In this document: positions 18,123-33,505 of the stretch, piece after piece
Numbering within the stretch: the stretch's first letter is position 1
How the letters are laid out: every line of letters begins with the position of its first letter
From: an uncultured delta proteobacterium
Lineage (GTDB): Bacteria > Desulfobacterota > Desulfobacteria > Desulfobacterales > UBA2156
Assembly: GCA_963736855.1 (NCBI GenBank)
Contig: CAVTQK010000017.1
Coordinates: forward strand, 1-64,000
DNA length: 64,000 nucleotides
Reading direction: 5' to 3'
The notes under the pieces: generated by a model
Database searches by the model: none
Told to the model about the DNA's origin: nothing
What the model saw: only the letters and a program-made list of their open reading frames with translations
Translations under genes and position numbers: made by a program

Positions 18123-19616
18123 TCAAAACATGAGTTCGACGATTTGGGCTAAGGGCTGCCAATAAATACCTAATCCAAAGGTGGGGATCATCAGAGTAAT
18201 GAGGAGCAATTGCGAACCAAGAGATATTTCGGGATAGTGGGATTCAGTCGCGGGTTCCAGAAACATGGCTTTCACGATTCGCATGTAGTAGTAAAGCGAA
18301 ACCACTGTGTTGAGCGCAGCGACTACGGCCAGCCAGTAAATTTCGCGGGAGATCACCGCGATAAAAAGGTAAACCTTACCGACGAAGCCGGCAAAGGGAG
18401 GAAGTCCGACTAGAGAAAACAGAAAAACAGTCATGGCCACGGCGATAAAGGGCGATTGATTCCCAAGCCCGCGATAAGAATGAATCTCTTCGCTCTCGAC
18501 CGTGCCTCCTAAAATCGCCACTACGGCAAATGCGCCTAAATTCATGAACAGGTAAACCGCCATATAAAAAATGACCGCCCTCAGCCCTATGCGGCTCAGG
18601 CTTGCTAATCCCATGAGCAGATAGCCTGCATGGGCGATGCTGGAGTAGGCTAAAAGTCGCTTAACATTTGTCTGGGGGATAGCCGCCAGGTTTCCCCAGG
18701 TCATGGTAACAGCAGAAATGAGAGCCAAGATGGCGGGCCAATTCAGGCCTATTGCGGCTGTATAAAGCTCATTCCCTTCTCGGGTGGCAAACAGGGGATA
18801 GAACAGGCGAATAAACAGGGCAAAAGCAGCACACTTCGGACCCACGCTGAGAAACGCGGTAACGGATGTCGGTGCGCCCTCATAGACATCGGGGCACCAA
18901 AAGTGAAAAGGAAAAGAAGCGGTTTTAAAGAGCAGACCGACCAGAAAAAACAGCATGGCGGTAATAAGAAGCAGCCGGTTGTGGGGTTGTGCGCTCGCCG
19001 ATGCGATTGCCTGGCTGATGCCGGAAAGTTCTGTTGTTCCGGCCGCACCGAAGACCAGGGAAAATCCGAACAACATAATCCCCGAGGTAAAAGCGCCATA
19101 GAGTATATACTTCAAGGCAGCCTCGCCACTCCTCAGTTCACGGGCTTTGATCCCTACGAGCAGATAGCTCAAAATGCCCATTGTTTCAAAAGCAACGTAG
19201 ATCATCAGCAAGTCGGTCGCGGCCACCAGCATCATCATGCCGATGGTTATAACTAAAACGAGAAACACCGATTCATGGTAATACTGATCTTCGATCTCTT
19301 TGCTGCCGTAAATCAAAATGATTGTCACACCACCGACAACGGCAAAAAAAGGTTTGAAGAAACAACTCAGCCAATCCCAAATGAAGAGATTCGAGAGGTA
19401 GGGGATGTTTCCGCCGGGTGAAGGAAGCACCATGAGAGGAACAAGCGATAGGCCCAATGCCGCCACTCCAATCAATGTGAAAACCATCCGATAACGCCAA
19501 TAGGGGATGGCTATCCCTGTTATCAGCAGCAGCAGGGCGCCTGTGGAAAGCACAATTTCAGGGCCAAGAAGCGAAAGGCTCCGGATGTTGTCAACGATGA
19601 AAGCTTCGGCGGTCAA
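18123..19616 (-). CDS. nuoN: Complex I-like oxidoreductase subunit N
   Basis: EAALKY, FKTASFPFHFWCPDVYEGAP and KRLLAYSSIAHAGY. Last gene of the operon. Confidence 0.95.
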   Translation of the reverse strand: MTAEAFIVDNIRSLSLLGPEIVLSTGALLLLITGIAIPYWRYRMVFTLIGVAALGLSLVPLMVLPSPGGNIPYLSNLFIWDWLSCFFKPFFAVVGGVTIILIYGSKEIEDQYYHESVFLVLVITIGMMMLVAATDLLMIYVAFETMGILSYLLVGIKARELRSGEAALKYILYGAFTSGIMLFGFSLVFGAAGTTELSGISQAIASASAQPHNRLLLITAMLFFLVGLLFKTASFPFHFWCPDVYEGAPTSVTAFLSVGPKCAAFALFIRLFYPLFATREGNELYTAAIGLNWPAILALISAVTMTWGNLAAIPQTNVKRLLAYSSIAHAGYLLMGLASLSRIGLRAVIFYMAVYLFMNLGAFAVVAILGGTVESEEIHSYRGLGNQSPFIAVAMTVFLFSLVGLPPFAGFVGKVYLFIAVISREIYWLAVVAALNTVVSLYYYMRIVKAMFLEPATESHYPEISLGSQLLLITLMIPTFGLGIYWQPLAQIVELMF

Positions 19617-19641
19617 GATGTCTATCCTTTGTTGTCCGCAT

Positions 19642-21144
19642 TCAGCGCAAGATCAAGTCTACGGTGTGTTTAAGGCTTGTGCCGATCAGATCCAGCAGCG
19701 GCATGGGATAAAACCCGAGAAGCACCACGATCAGGGCTAAAGGTGTCAGTGTAAATACTTCGCGCAGGTTGATATCCGGAAGGCCGGCATACTGCTCCTT
19801 GACAGGTCCTAAAAAAACGCGCTGCATGGTCCAGAGAAAATAGCCTGCCGTGAGGACGATTCCTGAGGTTGCCGTAATCGTATAGACTCGATACTGCTGG
19901 AATGAACCGATCAGCACCAGGGCTTCACTGATGAAGCTGGAGAGCCCAGGTAACCCTAAAGCCGCAAAAAACGCTAGACCGGTATATCCCGCGTAGATCG
20001 GCATGGTTTTGGCGAGTCCGCCGAAACCGTCGATCATGCGGTGATGGGCACGGTCGTAGATCACCCCTACCAGAAGAAAGAGCATGGCGGTCACTGTGCC
20101 GTGGTTGAACATCTGCAGAACGGCGCCGTTGATTGCTGTAGTGTTGGTAAATACGGACATACCCAAGACCACAAAACCCATGTGGCTGATGCTGGAATAG
20201 GCAATCAGCTTCTTAAGATCCTGCTGGGCCATGGCACAGAGGGCGCCGTATATAATACTGATCACACCGAAAAGAGCCACGTAGGGAGCAAAGACAAAAG
20301 CCATGTCCGGAAGCAGGGGGTAAGAAATCCGTAAAATCCCATAAGCCCCCATTTTCAAAAGAACGCCGGCCAGAATGACGCTGACGGCAGTCGGCGCTTC
20401 CACATGGGCATCCGGGAGCCACGTATGAAGAGGGACCACCGGTATCTTGATGCAGAAGCCGATGAGAAGTGCGAAGTAGCAGAGCCAGCGGATGGTCGTG
20501 TTTAGAAGCAGGCTTTGGTGCATGCTCTGATCGGCCAGGATAGTCAGATCAAAAGTGTGCAGGCCCGTAGTCGGTTCGGCCGACCCGAAGAAACAAATCA
20601 CCATGACGATGAGCATCAATACGCTGCCCACCAGCGTGAATAGGAAGAATTTGATGGCGGCGTATTCCTTTTTGGGACCACCCCAGACTCCGATGAGGAA
20701 GTACATGGGGAGCAACATCAGCTCCCAAAAAACATAAAACAGGAAGAAATCCAGAGCGCAGAAAACGCCCATCATACTGGTATCCAGCAGCAAAAAAAGG
20801 GTAAAATAGCCCCGGACGTGCTGCCGGATGTTCCAGGAAGCGACGATGCACAGGAAGGAGAGCATGGCTGTCAGCAGGACCATGGGAATGCTGATCCCGT
20901 CGATTCCCACAGAGTAGCTTATGTTGAAAGCTTTTATCCAGGGTACCCTTTCCACATACTGAAATGCCGTGTCTGCCGGATCGAATCGGTTATAGAGCTT
21001 GGCCACCCACCAAAGCGGAATAGCGGTGCTGATGAGAGCCAGAGTCTTCATCAGGTTGGGAAAGCGTTTGGGCACAAAGAGGATGGCACCCGCCCCCACC
21101 AGCGGGGAAAAAATAATCCAAGACAGTAGATGTTCGGCAAACAT
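19642..21144 (-). CDS. nuoM: Complex I-like oxidoreductase subunit M
   Basis: GIDGIS, FYVFWE, KIPVVPLHTWLPDAHVEAPT and LAGVLLKMG. Confidence 0.96.
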   Translation of the reverse strand: MFAEHLLSWIIFSPLVGAGAILFVPKRFPNLMKTLALISTAIPLWWVAKLYNRFDPADTAFQYVERVPWIKAFNISYSVGIDGISIPMVLLTAMLSFLCIVASWNIRQHVRGYFTLFLLLDTSMMGVFCALDFFLFYVFWELMLLPMYFLIGVWGGPKKEYAAIKFFLFTLVGSVLMLIVMVICFFGSAEPTTGLHTFDLTILADQSMHQSLLLNTTIRWLCYFALLIGFCIKIPVVPLHTWLPDAHVEAPTAVSVILAGVLLKMGAYGILRISYPLLPDMAFVFAPYVALFGVISIIYGALCAMAQQDLKKLIAYSSISHMGFVVLGMSVFTNTTAINGAVLQMFNHGTVTAMLFLLVGVIYDRAHHRMIDGFGGLAKTMPIYAGYTGLAFFAALGLPGLSSFISEALVLIGSFQQYRVYTITATSGIVLTAGYFLWTMQRVFLGPVKEQYAGLPDINLREVFTLTPLALIVVLLGFYPMPLLDLIGTSLKHTVDLILR

Positions 21145-21213
21145 CGTCAGGTCCTCCCTACGGGTCCGACGAGCGGCTATTTTCTAAAAGCCGATCCGCA
21201 AGACCCGCAGCAA

Positions 21214-23283
21214 TCAAAACAAAAGCAGTATGACGTATAGACCGAAAACTCCAAAAGCCACCGAGTAAAGGTAGTGTTGAATCTTGCCGGTATGCAGGCG
21301 GCGGAGCTGATCCCCGCACTTTTGAACGACCCCTGCCAGGCCGTTCACGGCTCCGTCTACCACCTGCAGGTCCTCCCAGCCCACCAGCACGGCGAGCTTC
21401 GCGGTGAGCCAGGATGTCAGGTTCACTATGGCGTCGATTCCGTTCAGGTCAAAATGCCCGGCTATTTTGGCAAGTTTCACCATCGGACGTATGAAAAGAA
21501 ACTGGTAGAGCTCATCCACAAAGAACAAACGGCTGAGCATCCGGTAAATGCCGGCAAACCGTGAGGCGGCCCGCGCAGGAATCTCGGTGTGTTTGACATA
21601 ACAAAGCCAGCCGCCGCAGATTCCGGCTAGGGCCACAGCCGAGGAAAGTCCCATCAGCAGGACTTCCATCCCATAGGCGTGGGCAATGGGATCGGAACCG
21701 CCATGATCGCCGAGCACCGGTTTTAAGAAACTCTCAAGTGCATGGGGCAGATGAGTCGAGGCTGGAAGCCCCATGGCTCCGCCGATCACAGCCAGCACGG
21801 CAAGAGCTATCAAAGGCCCGGTCATAACCGGTGGAGACTCATGCAGGTGATGCGCCTCTTCCGGAGTGCCGCGATATGTGCCGGCAAACGCCAGGATGAC
21901 CAGCCGAGTCATGTAGAAAGCCGTCAGGCTGGCAGTTATCAGGCCCAAAGCCCAAAGCGCTTTTCCCAATCCGGGAATGGGCAGATGGCTGGTGAAGGTG
22001 GCCCAAAGGATTTCGTCTTTGCTCATGAACCCCGATAATGGGGGTACTCCGGAAATGGCCAAGTACCCGGCCATGAACGTCAGGAATGTCCGCGGCATAT
22101 AGCGCCTCAGCCCTCCCATCTGCTGGAGATCATTGTGGTGCACGGCATGGATGATACTGCCGGCCCCGAGGAAAAGCAGGGCCTTGAAAAAGGAATGTGT
22201 TACCAAGTGAAAGATCCCCGCGCTGAAAGCCGCAACCCCAACCGCCAGGAACATAAAACCCAGTTGGCTGATGGTGGAGTAAGCTAAAACGCGCTTGATG
22301 TCGTTTTGAACCACAGCCAGGGTAGCCGCTCCAAAGGCGGTTACCCCTCCCACAATGGCGACCACAGCCAGGGCGGCAGGTGCCGACAGGAAAAGAAAAT
22401 TGAGCCGGGCAATCATATAAACTCCGGCTGTGACCATGGTGGCGGCATGAATAAAGGCGCTTACCGGTGTGGGGCCCGCCATGGCATCGGGCAGCCAGAC
22501 ATACAGCGGGATCTGTGCCGACTTGCCGGTTGCACCCACGAATAATAACAGGGCTACCCAGGTAGCCACTTCGATGTTCCAAATCGGGCGTACGGTCATC
22601 AGCCGGGGCATGGCTTCTTGCAACTGCCCGAAGCTCAAACCGGTTACTGCGCCGCCGCTCGTTTCGAAGAGAGTCCAGAATAGGAGCATCAAGCCCACAA
22701 AGAAACCGAAATCTCCCACGCGGTTTACAATGAACGCCTTCATTCCGGCCCGAGCCTTATCCAGATCGGTGAACCAGAACCCGATGAGCAAATAGGAGCA
22801 AAGGCCGACCCCTTCCCATCCCACGAACATGACCAGCAGGTTGTCCGCCAGTACCAGCAGCAACATGGAAAAGGTGAAGAGGTTCAGATAGGCAAAGTAG
22901 CGCGGTTGGCTGTCATCGCCGGCCATGTATCCCACGGAGTACAGGTGAATGAGGAATCCCACCCCGCTGACGACCAGGCACATTACAGCGGATAAAGGGT
23001 CCATGCGGAAAGCCAGTTCCAGGCTGAAACACCCCTGATCCCAGCTGATCAGAAGCCATTGATACAAGGATTGGATCACGAGCCGCTCTGTTGGCTCTTC
23101 GATGCCAAGGAGAGTGAAAAAACCTGCCACCGCGATCCAGAAGGAAAGAAACACACTGACGCAGCCGATCACAGGCACGGCTCGGCCGGGGAGTTTCTTC
23201 CCCAACAACCCGTTCATCACCGCTCCCGCAAGGGGCAGGCAGGGGATTGTCCAAATCATCGACTGTATGCTCTGAGGACTCAA
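21214..23283 (-). CDS. nuoL: Complex I-like oxidoreductase subunit L
   Basis: GWEGVGLCSYLLIGFW and GKSAQIPLYVWLPDAMAGPTPVSA, with a long C-terminal extension. Confidence 0.96.
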   Translation of the reverse strand: MSPQSIQSMIWTIPCLPLAGAVMNGLLGKKLPGRAVPVIGCVSVFLSFWIAVAGFFTLLGIEEPTERLVIQSLYQWLLISWDQGCFSLELAFRMDPLSAVMCLVVSGVGFLIHLYSVGYMAGDDSQPRYFAYLNLFTFSMLLLVLADNLLVMFVGWEGVGLCSYLLIGFWFTDLDKARAGMKAFIVNRVGDFGFFVGLMLLFWTLFETSGGAVTGLSFGQLQEAMPRLMTVRPIWNIEVATWVALLLFVGATGKSAQIPLYVWLPDAMAGPTPVSAFIHAATMVTAGVYMIARLNFLFLSAPAALAVVAIVGGVTAFGAATLAVVQNDIKRVLAYSTISQLGFMFLAVGVAAFSAGIFHLVTHSFFKALLFLGAGSIIHAVHHNDLQQMGGLRRYMPRTFLTFMAGYLAISGVPPLSGFMSKDEILWATFTSHLPIPGLGKALWALGLITASLTAFYMTRLVILAFAGTYRGTPEEAHHLHESPPVMTGPLIALAVLAVIGGAMGLPASTHLPHALESFLKPVLGDHGGSDPIAHAYGMEVLLMGLSSAVALAGICGGWLCYVKHTEIPARAASRFAGIYRMLSRLFFVDELYQFLFIRPMVKLAKIAGHFDLNGIDAIVNLTSWLTAKLAVLVGWEDLQVVDGAVNGLAGVVQKCGDQLRRLHTGKIQHYLYSVAFGVFGLYVILLLF

Positions 23284-23287
23284 CGGC

Positions 23288-23617
23288 TTATCCGCGCAAC
23301 TGTTGATATTGCTCTACATCGACCGTCTTTAGAATGCTGTAAAGCGACAGAACAATCGCCATGACCGCCGCCGCCTCGGCTGCAGCGATGGCGATAACAA
23401 ACAGGGCAAAGACTTGCCCGCTGATCAGCGAAGCCCCTTCGGGCGCTTCCAGAAAACGGGAAAATGCGACAAAATTGAGAGCGCCCGCGTTCAGTACAAG
23501 CTCAATTCCCATGAGCACCCCGATGGCGTTCCGACGGGTGAGGACCGTAAAAAGGCCAAGGCAAAAAAGAAGGGAACTGACCACTAAAAAGCTCGATAGA
23601 CTGTAAGTCATGATCAC
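23288..23617 (-). CDS. nuoK: Complex I-like oxidoreductase subunit K
   Basis: RRNAIGVLMGIELVLNA and GQVFALFVIAIAAAEAA. Confidence 0.95.
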   Translation of the reverse strand: MIMTYSLSSFLVVSSLLFCLGLFTVLTRRNAIGVLMGIELVLNAGALNFVAFSRFLEAPEGASLISGQVFALFVIAIAAAEAAAVMAIVLSLYSILKTVDVEQYQQLRG

Positions 23618-24159
23618 TCACCTTTTTGTTTCCGTCTGATAATGAAGACTGAAGGGGAGAGTTCGCTGCGAACGCTGTGCCGAACGATCAACACCGCCCC
23701 GACCAAGGCTGCAAGGAGCAGCAGAGAGACCACTTCAAAGGGGATCAGGTATTTGCCGAGCAACAGGTTGCCGATCGCTTGCGATGTGGGGGTGGGCGGA
23801 GGCGGCGCAGACCGGACCGGCCAAAGGAAATGGGTTACCGCCACCATCAGCGCCGCGAGAATGATCCCTGTGAGGCCGGCGGCCAAAAGCCGGCCGGGAA
23901 GGTTCACCGACAATGGTGAGAGCCTTGTGCCCTGGGTCATCATGACTCCGAAGATAATCAGTACCAGAATCCCTCCGATGTAAATGATCACCTGAACGAC
24001 CCCGACGAAATCGGCGCCCAGCATCACAAAAAGCCCGGCAATGCCGAAGAGGGTGAAGAGCAGAGAGAACGCCGCATGCACGATGTTGCTCGAAAGCGCT
24101 ACCCACAAAGAGGGGATGATCGCCATCAGCACGAAAACGTTAAATATGATCGTTTTCAT
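23614..24159 (-). CDS. nuoJ: Complex I-like oxidoreductase subunit J
   Basis: QVIIYIGGILVLIIFGVM and PFEVVSLLLLAALVGA. Start moved to the ATG at 24159 (MKTIIFN). Confidence 0.93.
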   Translation of the reverse strand: MKTIIFNVFVLMAIIPSLWVALSSNIVHAAFSLLFTLFGIAGLFVMLGADFVGVVQVIIYIGGILVLIIFGVMMTQGTRLSPLSVNLPGRLLAAGLTGIILAALMVAVTHFLWPVRSAPPPPTPTSQAIGNLLLGKYLIPFEVVSLLLLAALVGAVLIVRHSVRSELSPSVFIIRRKQKGE

Positions 24160-24766
24160 CTTCTTTCTTTCCCTTCCGACTTTTTTCCGGTTTTTGCGAA
24201 GCTTCCGCCGACAGGCGCAACCGCTCGCGCCGCAATTCGGCCGGGATGAATTCTTTTGCCAAGGCATCGAAGTCAAAGGTATTGGCTTCGAATTGACGCG
24301 TGAAAAAAACCGCATCCGTAGGGCAACTTTCCACACAGAGTCCGCAGAACATACATTTGGCATAGTCAACGGTATAAGTCAGCGGTACCTTGCCCTTGCG
24401 GCCCTCAATCCGCACTCCCTTCACTGCGATGACATCAATGGGGCAGATCTGCATGCACAGCAAACACGCAATGCATTGTGGTTCATTGTAGCCGAGCAGT
24501 CCCCGGAACCGGTCCGCAACCCGGTTGTTCAGCGGCCCACGATAGTTCTGGGCGGCGCCCAGAAGGAGCTCGAAGGGTTGCTTGGCGGAACCTTCAGGCA
24601 AAAGGGCGTCTTTAGGTTTTCCCTCGAAAACGTCATAGGATGGGTACTGAAGGGTCACTTTGCGCTCGAAAAAAGCGGTTTTAAAGGTGATCCACATCCC
24701 GGTAGCGATCGTGCTGACGCTCTCGTAAATGTTGCGGAAATAATTCGCGATGCTGCCGGGGATCAT
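24140..24766 (-). CDS. nuoI: Complex I-like oxidoreductase subunit I (2x[4Fe-4S])
   Basis: TLQYP, RFRG, CIACLLCMQICP and CMFCGLCVESCP. Confidence 0.94.
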   Translation of the reverse strand: MIPGSIANYFRNIYESVSTIATGMWITFKTAFFERKVTLQYPSYDVFEGKPKDALLPEGSAKQPFELLLGAAQNYRGPLNNRVADRFRGLLGYNEPQCIACLLCMQICPIDVIAVKGVRIEGRKGKVPLTYTVDYAKCMFCGLCVESCPTDAVFFTRQFEANTFDFDALAKEFIPAELRRERLRLSAEASQKPEKSRKGKKEDENDHI

Positions 24767-24779
24767 GGACCAACCTTCC

Positions 24780-26120
24780 TTAAGGATTGAAGAGGCACAG
24801 CCAAAAGCCCTGGCCGACTAGGCAAACGAATCCCAAAGGGATCATGTATTTCCAGCACACGCTCATCAACTGGTCCACGCGCAGCCGGGGCAATGTCCAG
24901 CGCCACAACAAGATCACGAAGGCAATTGCCATCGCCTTGAAAAAAAAGGTCAGGAATGGAACGAGATACTGAAAAACAATCTCATAAATCGACGGGAGCC
25001 GACTGCGCAGGGGCCAGTGCATGAGCAATGCCATGGCGGCGAAGGCGGCGAGCAGGCCCAGGAACAGCAATTCCGAGTTGATGCGCACCAATCGACTGGG
25101 CAACAAGGCCGATTTGCGATGCACATCGGCGCCAAATGCCCGCATCGCTTTCCAAGCAAACCAGATGCAAGGCAGCGTTGCGATCATCAAGGCCGACAGA
25201 ACGTGCGGATACCTCAGGGACTCTCCCACCTTTCGGCCGATCGGCCCCAGAGTCTCGGCATCCTCCAGCCCCGGCAGTTGCCAGCCTCCGAGGAAACAGA
25301 TGACGGCGATGGAACTCACCACATAGATGTTGCTGAACTCCGCCACAAAAAAAACACCGAAGCGCATTCCGCTGTACTCGACGTTATAGCCTGCCACCAG
25401 CTCGGATTCGGCCTCTGGGATATCGAAGGGGATCCGGTTGATTTCCGCTATCGATGTCGTGAAGTAAATAAAGAAAGCCAAAATGCAAAACGGGCTGTTG
25501 AAAAGAAACCAGTGCTGCACACCGCCTGCTTGTGCCTGAATGATACCCTGCACGCTCATGGTACCGGCCGTGAGCACAACCACCAGGATGGCTAGGGCAT
25601 TGGGGATCTCATAGCTTACGATCTGAGCGGCCGAGCGCATGCCGCCTAGCAGCGCCCATTTGTTATTCGACGCCCAACCCGCCATGATCAGCCCGACCAC
25701 CGTGAAGGACCCCGTAGCAAGGAGATAAAAGACCCCAATGTTCAGATCGCTGATAATGAGCCTGGGACCGAATGGGATTACGACAAAGGAAAGTGCGGTA
25801 CCGAGCAGAACCAAGTAGGGCGCAAATCGGAAAAAAGCGCGGTCGGCTTCCGCAGGGATAATATCTTCCTTTAAGATGAGTTTAACCCCGTCTGCCACGA
25901 ACTGGGCCAACCCATAAGGTCCCACACGATTGGGTCCGCGGCGGGAATTGGTCCACCCGGCCAGCTTGCGTTCCAAAAATGTGAAGAGGCCCCCCATGAT
26001 GCCGAAAAAATTGAGGACCGCCAGGCCGCCGGCCAGCATTACCACAACGGCCGTAGCGTCATGGCCGATCATCTGGAAAAGGGTGAACTCGCGGTAGAGA
26101 TCATTAACCAGGTTGTTCAT
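24780..26120 (-). CDS. nuoH: Complex I-like oxidoreductase subunit H, extended (446 aa)
   Basis: ERK, RRGPNRVGP, ADGVKLILKE, NRIPFDIPEAESELVAGY and PRLRVDQLM. Confidence 0.95.
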   Translation of the reverse strand: MNNLVNDLYREFTLFQMIGHDATAVVVMLAGGLAVLNFFGIMGGLFTFLERKLAGWTNSRRGPNRVGPYGLAQFVADGVKLILKEDIIPAEADRAFFRFAPYLVLLGTALSFVVIPFGPRLIISDLNIGVFYLLATGSFTVVGLIMAGWASNNKWALLGGMRSAAQIVSYEIPNALAILVVVLTAGTMSVQGIIQAQAGGVQHWFLFNSPFCILAFFIYFTTSIAEINRIPFDIPEAESELVAGYNVEYSGMRFGVFFVAEFSNIYVVSSIAVICFLGGWQLPGLEDAETLGPIGRKVGESLRYPHVLSALMIATLPCIWFAWKAMRAFGADVHRKSALLPSRLVRINSELLFLGLLAAFAAMALLMHWPLRSRLPSIYEIVFQYLVPFLTFFFKAMAIAFVILLWRWTLPRLRVDQLMSVCWKYMIPLGFVCLVGQGFWLCLFNP

Positions 26121-26192
26121 AGCGAACCTGTATGAACGTTCGCGCCGTTAAGCGACGCCTCCCGTTCTGTTACGATACGGATAGCATGCCGG

Positions 26193-27305
26193 CTACCGAT
26201 CAATTTCAGGTGCGATCAGATCCAGACTGGCGACCAGAGTCACCAGGTCAGACACCATCAGGCCGGGGGCAATCTCTTCCACAATGCTCATGGCCGAGAA
26301 AGAGCCCGTGCGGATCTTGAGCCGATAGGGTCGATCTTCACCATGGCTGATGATATAAAAGCCCAATTCGCCCCTGGGAGCTTCCGTGCGAACATAGATT
26401 TCGCCAGGCGGCGGTTTCAATTTTTTTTTCGACCGGTTCCAGTACGAGTCATTAGGCATTTTGGAAACGCACTGACGCACAATACGAGCGCTCTCGACCA
26501 TCTCCAGAATGCGTACCCAGTAGCGACTGTAGCAATCGCCCAACTCTGTATGGGAAGGGGGTCTGACGACCTCGAACTTCAGCTCCGGATAGATGGAATA
26601 CGGTTCATCCCGTCTCAAATCCCAATCGACACCGGAAGCTCTCAAGTTCGGCCCCACCAGGCCATAGCCAAGAGCGTCTTCGCGACTGATAACGGCAACC
26701 CCTGAGAGGCGCTCCTTAAAAATCTTGTTATTCGATATCAACCGGTTGTATTGGTCCAAACGGGGCTCGAAGTAATCCAGGAAGTTACTGACGCGTTCAA
26801 GAAACCCTGCGGGCAGATCAAAGGATACTCCTCCGAAGCGCATGTAATTATAAGTCAGCCGCGCCCCACAGAGCTCTTCGAAGAGGTCGTTGACCCATTC
26901 CCGCTCTCTCAGGGCATGGGTGAATGGGGTGACGGCGCCCATGTCCAGCGCAAAGGTGCCGACCGAAATCAAATGGCTGATGATGCGGTTGAGCTCCGCG
27001 ACCAGCACCCTAATATACTCTGCCCGCGGGGGTACTTCGATCCCGGCTAGACGCTCCACTCCAATGGCGTATCCGAAGTTACAGTTCATGGCCGCCAGGT
27101 AGTCGATTCGGTCGGTATATGGCATGAACTGGGGATAGCTGACTTTTTCGGCGATTTTTTCAAGGCCGCGGTGCAGAAATCCCACATCCGGCCTGCATCC
27201 GTAAATGACTTCCCCGTCTGTGCGCAGGATAAAGCGCAACACGCCATGGGTGCTTGGATGGTGTGGGCCCATGTTGAGGATCATTTCTTCAGTGATAAAT
27301 GACAC
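26193..27305 (-). CDS. nuoD: Complex I-like oxidoreductase subunit D
   Basis: NMGPHHPSTHGVLR, LHRGLEK, DRIDY, EAPRGE and C-terminal EIDR. No NiFe CxxC motifs. Confidence 0.96.
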   Translation of the reverse strand: MSFITEEMILNMGPHHPSTHGVLRFILRTDGEVIYGCRPDVGFLHRGLEKIAEKVSYPQFMPYTDRIDYLAAMNCNFGYAIGVERLAGIEVPPRAEYIRVLVAELNRIISHLISVGTFALDMGAVTPFTHALREREWVNDLFEELCGARLTYNYMRFGGVSFDLPAGFLERVSNFLDYFEPRLDQYNRLISNNKIFKERLSGVAVISREDALGYGLVGPNLRASGVDWDLRRDEPYSIYPELKFEVVRPPSHTELGDCYSRYWVRILEMVESARIVRQCVSKMPNDSYWNRSKKKLKPPPGEIYVRTEAPRGELGFYIISHGEDRPYRLKIRTGSFSAMSIVEEIAPGLMVSDLVTLVASLDLIAPEIDR

Positions 27306-27328
27306 CGGCTGCGTTCCTTCACCTAAGA

Positions 27329-27901
27329 TTATGAAGAAATTTTGACCGAGATTCTCGGGTCGTCCGGAGCAATTTCAGTGGGGGCCGCTTTTTCCCTGAC
27401 CGTGCTGATGTTTCGGTAGGCCTTCAATTCCTGATAATCTTTCAGCAAAGGATGGCCTTGCCAGTCAGGGGGGAGCAGCAGTCTGCGAAAATCCCTGTGC
27501 CCGACAAAGTGTATCCCGAACATGTCGTAGACCTCTCGCTCCAGCCAACCGGCTCCCGGCCACACGTCCGAAACCGAATCTATTCGAAGATAGAAATGGG
27601 AAAGAGCCAATGGTCGCTCCAGCTTCACTTTTAACACGAGGCGATGACGGTGGCGGATTGAATAAAGATGATAAACCACCTCCAGCATTTCCGGTTCACC
27701 CAGCTGGTGAACGCCACTCAGGTTCATCAGGGTGTCGAAGGCGCATTGGGAATCCTCTTTCAGGAAAAAAGCGATTTGGTGCAGCTTTTCTTTCGGGACA
27801 ATAAGATATGAATCTCCGCGCGCGACCCCCGTCCATACGAGGTCGGCTATCCCCAGTGCTTCTTCCAATCTTTTTTGGATATGCTCGGCCTGCATCAGCA
27901 T
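27329..27901 (-). CDS. nuoC: Complex I-like oxidoreductase subunit C
   Basis: [17 protein letters not shown] and GHPLLKDY. Confidence 0.95.
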
Positions 27902-28392
27902 TTTTCAACCAGAAAGCGCTCCCGGCTGATCTTCTCCTGCAGCAATAAAATCCCATTAGTCAGGGCTTCCGGCCGAGGGGGGCAACCGGGCACATAGACA
28001 TCGACAGGCACGATTTTATCAACGCCTTTGACAACGGAATAGCTGATTTGGAAAAGGCCGCCGCAATTAGCGCAACTGCCCATGGCAATCACATACTTGG
28101 GTTCCGCCATCTGGTCATAAAGCAGGCGCAATCGCGGAGCCATCTTATACGTAAGGGTCCCGGCCACGATCATCAGATCGGACTGCCGTGGTGTGGCTCG
28201 AAACACGCTTCCTATGCGATCAAGATCTGTGCGCGGACCACCGGCCTGCATCAGCTCGATGGCTCAGCATGCCAGGCCGAAAAGGAGATACCAGATCGAT
28301 GAGAGCCGGCACCAGTTGAGAGCCTGATCCACGGTGGTGAAGACCGCACCCCAAAATCCCTGGGAGGGCAGCTTGGAGTATAGATGAGGCAT
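27895..28392 (-). CDS. nuoB: Complex I-like oxidoreductase subunit B with in-frame TGA at codon 43 (candidate selenocysteine)
   Basis: Manual translation from the ATG at 28392 (GGAG RBS upstream) gives [61 protein letters not shown]. It continues in frame into ORF 27895..28251 ([21 protein letters not shown]), 165 codons in total. Confidence 0.93.
28216..28263 (-). promoter_or_regulatory. Putative bacterial SECIS hairpin directly 3' of the nuoB UGA
   Basis: Minus strand reads UGA GCC AUCGAG CUG A UGC A GGCC GGU GGUC CGC GCA CAG AU CUUGAU CGC. The nested pairs are AUCGAG/CUUGAU, CUG/CAG, UGC/GCA and GGCC/GGUC. The G-led apical loop (GGU) starts 21 nt after the UGA. Folded by eye. Confidence 0.7.
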
Positions 28393-28418
28393 ATCCGTTC
28401 TCCATTCTCATTCACAGA

Positions 28419-28868
28419 TTAGACAGCGACCGGTTTTTCTTCATCTAAAAGAATCCGTTCCTTTGGAGTTTCGGGTACTTCCTTGCTCCATTTGAAATCC
28501 GCATGGCGCCCCAGGTAGATCAGTCCAAGAAAGAGAACGGCCAGGAAGAAAACGATCTCACCCAGGACCAGGATGCCGTAGCCTGCCTGGCGCCATTCGC
28601 GAAAGACGACGACGCACGGAAAAACGAGGGCCAGCTCGATGTCGAAAATCAGAAACGCCAGGGCCACCGCGTAAAAGCGGAAATTGAAGGGGATCCATGC
28701 CGAACCGACCGCCCGCTCCCCGCATTCGTAAGTGGTGTACTTGTCTGGAAAAATCGACACCTGGGGGGCAAGGATCCTGGATACCGCGATGATGACGAAG
28801 CTCATCAGCAGCCCGAGAATGATGAACACGAAAACATTTGCGAAATCAAATAACAAGGCGAACCTCAC
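28419..28868 (-). CDS. nuoA: Complex I-like oxidoreductase subunit A
   Basis: KYTTYECGE and RFYAVALAFLIFDIE. Confidence 0.95.
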   Translation of the reverse strand: MRFALLFDFANVFVFIILGLLMSFVIIAVSRILAPQVSIFPDKYTTYECGERAVGSAWIPFNFRFYAVALAFLIFDIELALVFPCVVVFREWRQAGYGILVLGEIVFFLAVLFLGLIYLGRHADFKWSKEVPETPKERILLDEEKPVAV

Positions 28869-31770: not shown

Positions 31771-31842
31771 GCCATGTGATCTCAATCCATTTTTTTGTTT
31801 TGGACCCCGAAAGCTGTTTTTAAGGAATCAAGGAGTGATTTG

Positions 31843-33252: not shown

Positions 33253-33334
33253 GCCCAGATTTTAGAGGAGAGTTACACGCCCGCCATCGACTGTATTTGA
33301 CAGGGCGATGGCGGCGCGCTATTTATATTAATAT

Positions 33335-33430
33335 TTTTCATTGGGGGAGTTGAGTCCCATCAGCTGAGAGGAGGCTTGCCGCCTCGACCCCTTGAACCTG
33401 ATCCGGATCATGCCGGCGTAGGGAAAATGA
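33335..33430 (+). ncRNA. TPP riboswitch
   Basis: GGGGAG...GCTGAGA...GACCC.TTGAACCTGATCCGGATCATGCCGGCGTAGGGAA, upstream of a thiamine-precursor transporter. Confidence 0.95.
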
Positions 33431-33505
33431 CCTCAAACCACATCGTTTTCATTCCTTTCCCCCCCACCGCCGCTGATCCTTGCTATCGCAACTCTTTGCT
33501 TTGGA

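Follow-up and report, generated by a model that had tools for sequence, protein, structure and literature searches.

Frequent exchange of selenocysteine (Sec) and cysteine at an otherwise conserved cysteine position is the usual signature of a selenoprotein. The bacterial element that lets a UGA be read as Sec, the SECIS, is a hairpin placed directly after the codon, and an experimentally established example is that of Escherichia coli fdhF. In the published model of these elements the apical loop has 3-9 nt, the upper stem 4-16 bp, the spacing from the UGA is 16-37 nt and the minimum free energy (MFE) is at or below -7.5 kcal/mol (PMC13188914, legend to its Fig. 2); the same source calls for a G as the first or second loop nucleotide, mostly with G or U next after it. 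On the protein side, the closest described system is the NuoB/Nqo6/PSST (NDUFS7) subunit of complex I, a member of PF01058 that holds the Fe-S cluster N2. N2 has an unusually high, pH-dependent reduction potential. As described in PMC8042128, the tandem cysteine pair of this subunit is an unusual, strained ligand pair of N2, the electron donor to quinone. Here we analyze a nuoB gene in which the second cysteine of this pair is replaced by an in-frame UGA that is followed by a hairpin.

The window analyzed, a stretch of 64,000 nucleotides from the genome of an uncultured delta proteobacterium of the order Desulfobacterales, carries on its minus strand an operon of 11 genes, nuoA-B-C-D-H-I-J-K-L-M-N (18123..28868), delimited by Pfam matches per ORF and by the ORF coordinates. 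Within 18123-28868 the Pfam matches included no nuoE, nuoF or nuoG, and the electron donor of the complex is therefore not evident. Located between nuoA and nuoC, nuoB (PF01058; 28392-27895, minus strand) comprises 165 codons plus the stop when the TGA at codon 43 (28266-28264, minus strand) is read through; this triplet, evident in the sequence and its translation, is the candidate Sec codon. The read-through protein matches the PF01058 profile with 102.6 bits and the solved PSST/NDUFS7 chains with E 7.5e-63. Alignment to homologues places UGA43 on the second Cys of the G-L-A-C-C tandem pair, both members of which are ligands of N2, and in the solved chains residue 43 falls on the second C of GLACCAVEMM. 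All four positions that ligate N2 are aligned (C42, U43, C107 and C137), so that Cys107 and Cys137, the remaining two ligands, are retained. At the position of codon 43, 85 distinct nuoB homologues have TGC or TGT, and the gene of a same-genus genome (G005), whose protein is 96% identical, has TGC. The motif of the third ligand, at residues 107-112, reads S-C-A-N-C-G-G vs S-C-A-N-G-G-G in the aligned solved PSST chain, and its extra Cys is common to the whole NuoB subfamily. At the distal end of the gene, the nuoB stop TGA (27897-27895) overlaps the start region of nuoC (ATG at 27901), which suggests translational coupling of the two genes; one member of the protein cluster described below, P0130 (281 aa), is called as a NuoB-NuoC fusion.

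It is very probable that UGA43 is decoded as Sec. The machinery is complete in the source genome, with selA (617 bits), selB (381 bits), tRNA-Sec (75.8 bits) and selD. The selD gene itself carries a TGA, and several fdhA and mvhD genes of the same genome have in-frame TGA codons at the expected motifs. A selB gene was found in all five genomes tested, including two other hosts of a UGA-type nuoB (G331 and G367); in these two, no tRNA-Sec match was obtained at E up to 1e-8 among the candidates scored (150 of 591 and 150 of 758), which, in genomes that are 84-85% complete, is not evidence of absence. The generality of selB stands against the idea that the UGA is read through without any Sec system, for example by a near-cognate Cys-tRNA or by Trp-tRNA, the hairpin then only stimulating read-through generically or marking a pause site. 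Nothing specific favours that idea. Moreover, the UGA lies exactly on the Cys position, Sec and Cys alternate on the tree described below, and the loop of the hairpin has the G-G/U motif that PMC13188914 gives for SelB-bound elements; Sec-free read-through is thus highly improbable. As a separate observation, the same-genus genome G005 has two selB and two tRNA-Sec matches, one pair being adjacent on contig C75, which may reflect a duplicated Sec system or a mixed bin.

Another alternative would be that the UGA is a true stop, nuoB being a pseudogene, an assembly error or a split gene with products of 42 and 118 residues, the second one started at the internal AUG at 28251; the hairpin would then be irrelevant. 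Several facts are compatible with it: the 118-aa product is indeed predicted by gene callers, the same-genus gene of 96% identity differs at the codon by one C-to-A change only, and two further NuoB-like paralogues are present in the source genome, on contig C21. Starting directly behind the UGA, the 118-aa product falls in a 51-protein cluster, and of the 15 listed members 12 are distinct 118-aa proteins, those named by their source being called NuoB. However, contigs from other runs (X2 and X4) span the site at 97-99% identity and, among the rows listed, show no other letter at 28264. The codon is, moreover, recurrent. Scanning of metagenomes with the pattern G-L-[AS]-C-TGA-x-[IV]-E-x-M yielded 16 loci, 11 of which are nuoB with TGA at the position of codon 43; all UGA-type DNA was ascertained through this TGA-requiring pattern, which among the stop codons covers TGA alone. 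Six of the 11 loci lie in the source clade and reduce to three distinct sequences: L128/L131/L140, identical in the region, L134 and L141. The UGA thereby recurs in six distinct DNA sequences, namely those of the window, L128, L134, L141, L166 and L167. Within the order Desulfobacterales the TGA pattern occurs in 3 of 401 genomes, distributed over three families, whereas a pattern with TGA in place of the first Cys, run on 151 of the order's genomes, gave 0 matches.

The divergence of these genes bears on the choice between stop and Sec. Pairs of UGA-type sequences, separated by dS of 1.2-3 and hence above 1, have dN/dS of 0.05-0.22 upstream and of 0.01-0.04 downstream of the UGA; this strong purifying selection on both sides implies that both halves of nuoB are translated and selected, and that the gene is not a pseudogene. 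When the U label is mapped on a tree built from the C-terminal region, it requires 5 changes, and well-supported branches force at least 3 of these; one clade of 12 rows is U-only, and the sequence of the window is sister to the Cys-type G005/P0002. Splitting of the gene would, in addition, deprive the product of one or both of the tandem-Cys ligands of N2 described in PMC8042128. A true stop at codon 43 is accordingly very unlikely, and decoding as Sec is retained as the preferred reading of the codon.

Some observations were made at the margins of this survey. Five singleton nuoB contigs of other NuoB lineages (L129, L133, L135, L137 and L139) have a TGA in place of the second tandem Cys, and two of these genes are similar in type to alphaproteobacterial and mitochondrial NuoB. 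Among the five, L137 alone has a comparable GG-loop hairpin (8 bp, loop 19 nt from the UGA); the five may represent independent Sec acquisitions or errors. A NuoB-like match in genome G056, flagged for an internal TGA, was discarded, the TGA being the normal stop of a hydrogenase-type small subunit, and the motif search on that locus gave no match. The distribution of this type of nuoB is patchy: four of five same-genus genomes (G001-G004) have no match at E up to 1e-20, and in the family of G367 (f11, 23 genomes) the type was found only in G367 itself, 1 genome of 23. Such a pattern points to gain and loss, to horizontal operon transfer or to artefacts of binning.

The hairpin that follows the UGA was predicted originally as a set of nested helices, AUCGAG/CUUGAU, CUG/CAG, UGC/GCA and GGCC/GGUC, closed by a GGU loop. 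The MFE fold of 28270-28210 (61 nt; -19.4 kcal/mol) reproduced all of them, with the GGU loop starting 21 nt after the A of the UGA, and departed from that drawing in one detail only: a U drawn as part of a G-U pair is bulged, GGCC pairing with GG(U)CC. The upper stem-loop (28232..28250, minus strand; nt 17-35 counted from the U of the UGA) consists of the UGC/GCG and GGCC/GGUC helices, and its pairs were defined, with the U of the UGA as 1, as 17-35, 18-34, 19-33, 21-31, 22-30, 23-29 and 24-28, leaving nt 25-27 as loop. This stem-loop, with the GGU loop (28242-28240, minus strand) at its apex, is the proposed SelB-binding core of the element. Including the lower helix, the hairpin extends over 28217..28262 (minus strand), the lower arms having been placed at 28260-28252 and 28229-28219; in the consensus that RNAalifold derives from the UGA-type set, the lower helix is formed by nt 5-11 with nt 44-50. 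The hairpin is no more stable than expected from its composition (z = -0.02; 87 of 200 shuffled sequences reach an equal or lower energy). The SECIS of E. coli fdhF, folded in the same way, has z = +0.38, and 127 of its 200 shuffles do as well; since this established element fails the test too, stability against shuffles is uninformative for the nuoB hairpin.

The properties of the hairpin agree with the published model. It lies directly downstream of an in-frame UGA that is aligned with Cys in homologues; its loop of 3 nt, its upper stem of 4 bp, the minimum allowed, and its spacing of 21 nt fall within the ranges of a bSECISearch-type model. In the window the loop reads GGU, and the remaining five UGA-type sequences have either GGU or GGC, with G where the model places it; the energy is well below the limit, both in the 61-nt fold and in our own implementation of the published model (-15.4 kcal/mol). 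This agreement carries little weight, because the model, as implemented, accepts also 50% of 600 random Cys-codon sites of the source genome. A narrower descriptor was also applied: GG at the start of the loop, loop start at nt 20-28, a first helix of at least 4 bp and a total of at least 7 bp. It was written after the data had been seen and was tuned on nine confirmed Sec sites of the source genome; in eight of these the loop contains GG and lies 18-23 nt past the UGA, as does the GGU of nuoB at 21 nt. At the threshold of at least 7 bp, nuoB and seven of the nine known Sec sites pass the descriptor; the background is 2.5% among 15,989 Cys codons and 2.2% among 1,758 TGA stops of long ORFs. 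An Rfam scan of the 64-kb window returned no SECIS family match, bacterial SECIS elements being perhaps not modelled in Rfam; the only matches were tRNAs and a TPP riboswitch (33333-33442, plus strand; 78.4 bits), located just downstream of an ORF that starts at 31795.

The comparison of UGA-type with Cys-type genes bears also on the most serious competitor of the SECIS reading. The UGA could be a Sec codon while the hairpin is mostly a by-product of the codons for M-Q-T-G-G-P-R, through self-pairing of GGN GGN CCN, the real signal being smaller, different or elsewhere, for example the 4-bp ministem with its GGY loop alone, or a structure outside the 63-110 nt analyzed. The structure originally drawn has 83.3% of its cells paired in the six UGA-type sequences vs 24-42% in slid controls. 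In the upper hairpin, 40 of 42 cells are paired in the six UGA-type sequences vs 80 of 105 for the 15 Cys-type sequences that share the peptide (Fisher p 0.008, relatedness ignored), a contrast that shows both a difference and how much of the hairpin is often present with a Cys codon. When only the four pairs with a free third position are considered, the values are 22 of 24 vs 36 of 60 cells (Fisher p 0.004, relatedness ignored). The most informative single site is position 3 of the second Gly codon, where U occurs in five of six UGA-type vs two of 15 Cys-type sequences. Hence, the third positions that complete the hairpin are held in UGA-type genes and variable in Cys-type genes, against what a mere by-product would predict. 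Against it stand as well the RNAalifold results, in which the upper hairpin and the lower helix appear in alignments of UGA-type genes, where the nuoB hairpin is the only structure within the spacing of 16-37 nt, and nothing similar appears in Cys-type genes, and the loop sequence and spacing shared with the other SECIS elements of the genome.

Other results are in keeping with a by-product or otherwise weigh against the SECIS reading. Compensatory double changes number zero in the six UGA-type sequences, which represent about four deep lineages, and shuffle controls were not exceeded. Synonymous conservation shows no local excess after the UGA, with 3 of 14 codon columns identical vs 33 of 130 (25%) gene-wide. 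The UGC/GCA helix, present in the MFE fold of the window, is not conserved as drawn: pair 18-36 is unpaired in three of the six UGA-type sequences, and the consensus pairs UGC with a GCG two bases earlier. Two of the six UGA-type sequences have one mismatch each; of these, L134 fails the descriptor entirely and L167 reaches only 4 bp. Furthermore, a similar hairpin with GG in the loop is present in 10 of 85 distinct Cys-type nuoB, which pass the descriptor at 7 bp or more (25 of 85 at 6 bp or more); NuoB is prone to form such hairpins here because a conserved Gly codon supplies the GG. Two Cys-type sequences, L019 and L055, have 7/7 upper pairs each. So does the nearest Cys-type homologue, that of G005 (TGC; dS about 0.1-0.17), with an MFE of -16.0 vs -15.5 kcal/mol; an intact hairpin is to be expected there because the split is so recent, and it implies that the hairpin does not require the UGA. 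The original prediction had named, as the outcome that would count against it, an equally stable hairpin in Cys-coding homologues together with a lack of covariation. The data gave this in half: the nearest Cys homologue has an equal hairpin and no covariation was seen, while the distant Cys homologues are mostly without the full hairpin. On balance, we consider it unlikely, although deserving serious weight, that the hairpin is mostly a by-product of the peptide.

The proposal of a SECIS-like hairpin is plausible and was moderately supported by agreement with the published constraints, by likeness to elements of the same genome and by better preservation in UGA-type genes, and was weakened by the lack of covariation and by the sharing of the hairpin with Cys-type genes. 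Taking together the comparative evidence, we estimate the probability that the nuoB hairpin is a SECIS recoding UGA43 as Sec at roughly 0.6. The proposed mechanism would be as follows. UGA43 would be decoded as Sec by the SelB/tRNA-Sec system, SelB being recruited by the hairpin directly downstream acting as a bacterial SECIS. Within it, nt 17-35 would matter most, an upper stem-loop whose GGY loop opens 21 nt past the UGA. Translation would then yield full-length NuoB in which selenium replaces sulfur at the second of the two tandem-Cys residues that ligate N2.

It had been suggested also that the peptide encoded at the hairpin was shaped in part by constraint on the RNA. This was not supported, since M-Q-x-G-G-P-R-(T/A)-D is found as well in 16 distinct Cys-type DNA loci; the longer form E-L-M-Q-x-G-G-P-R-(T/A)-D occurs in Cys-type loci including metagenome-assembled genomes labelled Binatia, Anaeromyxobacteraceae and Syntrophobacterales, and M-[QH]-x-G-G-P in 29 of 29 nearest Cys-type proteins among the matches listed. 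As far as these alignments indicate, the peptide is a trait of the subfamily that predates the UGA or is independent of it. Its presence in Cys-type relatives suggests that a hairpin-prone stretch was co-opted as SECIS, rather than that the RNA shaped the peptide. According to this scheme, the SECIS would have been recruited from the coding stretch for the conserved M-Q-T/A-G-G-P-R, and UGA-type genes would then hold a few free third positions (CAG, NCC, GGU and CCG) in the pairing state. Co-option with only a few tuned synonymous positions is more economical than a peptide shaped by RNA.

A further consequence, which we put forward tentatively and with somewhat less than even confidence, is that M-Q-T-G-G-P-R of this NuoB subfamily encodes a latent SECIS, so that one TGY-to-TGA change, or its reverse, would toggle an N2 ligand between sulfur and selenium. 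With the latent element already in Cys-type genes, a single-base switch between Cys and Sec would suffice, and the repeated switching among close relatives would be explained. Should this be so, the quinone-reducing cluster of complex I in these anaerobes would carry, at the second of its tandem Cys positions, a selenium ligand toggled in the course of evolution. An N2 with selenium at the strained tandem-Cys site would constitute a natural S-to-Se substitution for probing the tuning of the cluster. A functional SECIS at this site would add NuoB to the selenoproteins. NuoB/PF01058 is absent from the main text of a 2026 review of prokaryotic selenoproteomes, where the only match for NADH is an NqrE-type 'subunit E', and from the deep-Sep paper and its text supplements; in the full-text literature no report linking Sec to NuoB or to the tandem Cys of N2 was found, although subscription papers and other supplements could hold one. 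The case shows that coding sequence can be pre-adapted to become a SECIS, and also that a match to the published SECIS model by itself means little in a GC-rich genome.

Comparison with known systems places the locus as follows. Like canonical NuoB/Nqo6/PSST (NDUFS7), the protein belongs to PF01058, aligns at the four ligand positions of N2 and is encoded in the nuoA-nuoC neighbourhood; unlike it, its second ligand is encoded by UGA, and the operon is without nuoEFG. The nuoB hairpin shares with the SECIS of E. coli fdhF its location within the ORF directly 3' of the UGA, a small G-G-U apical loop and a stability no greater than that of shuffled sequences. The similar spacing that had been claimed for the two was confirmed, the GGUC loop of fdhF starting 18 nt after the UGA vs 21 nt in nuoB. 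They differ in the upper stem, which is longer in fdhF and in nuoB consists of a 4-bp helix, an A/C mismatch and 3 bp, and in the host gene, nuoB instead of a formate dehydrogenase. The fdhF element has also a bulged U for which the nuoB hairpin offers no clear counterpart. Further comparable elements are those of fdhA, selD and mvhD in the same genome, whose loops (GGC, GGA or others with GG) start 18-23 nt past the UGA, like the loop and spacing of nuoB; their closing helices are of 6-9 contiguous bp, while that of nuoB is of 4 bp with a 3-bp extension. All of them would be read by the same SelB. Taken as a SECIS, the hairpin is an ordinary bacterial one, and its interest lies in the gene that it would serve and in the possible one-base switch between Cys and Sec.
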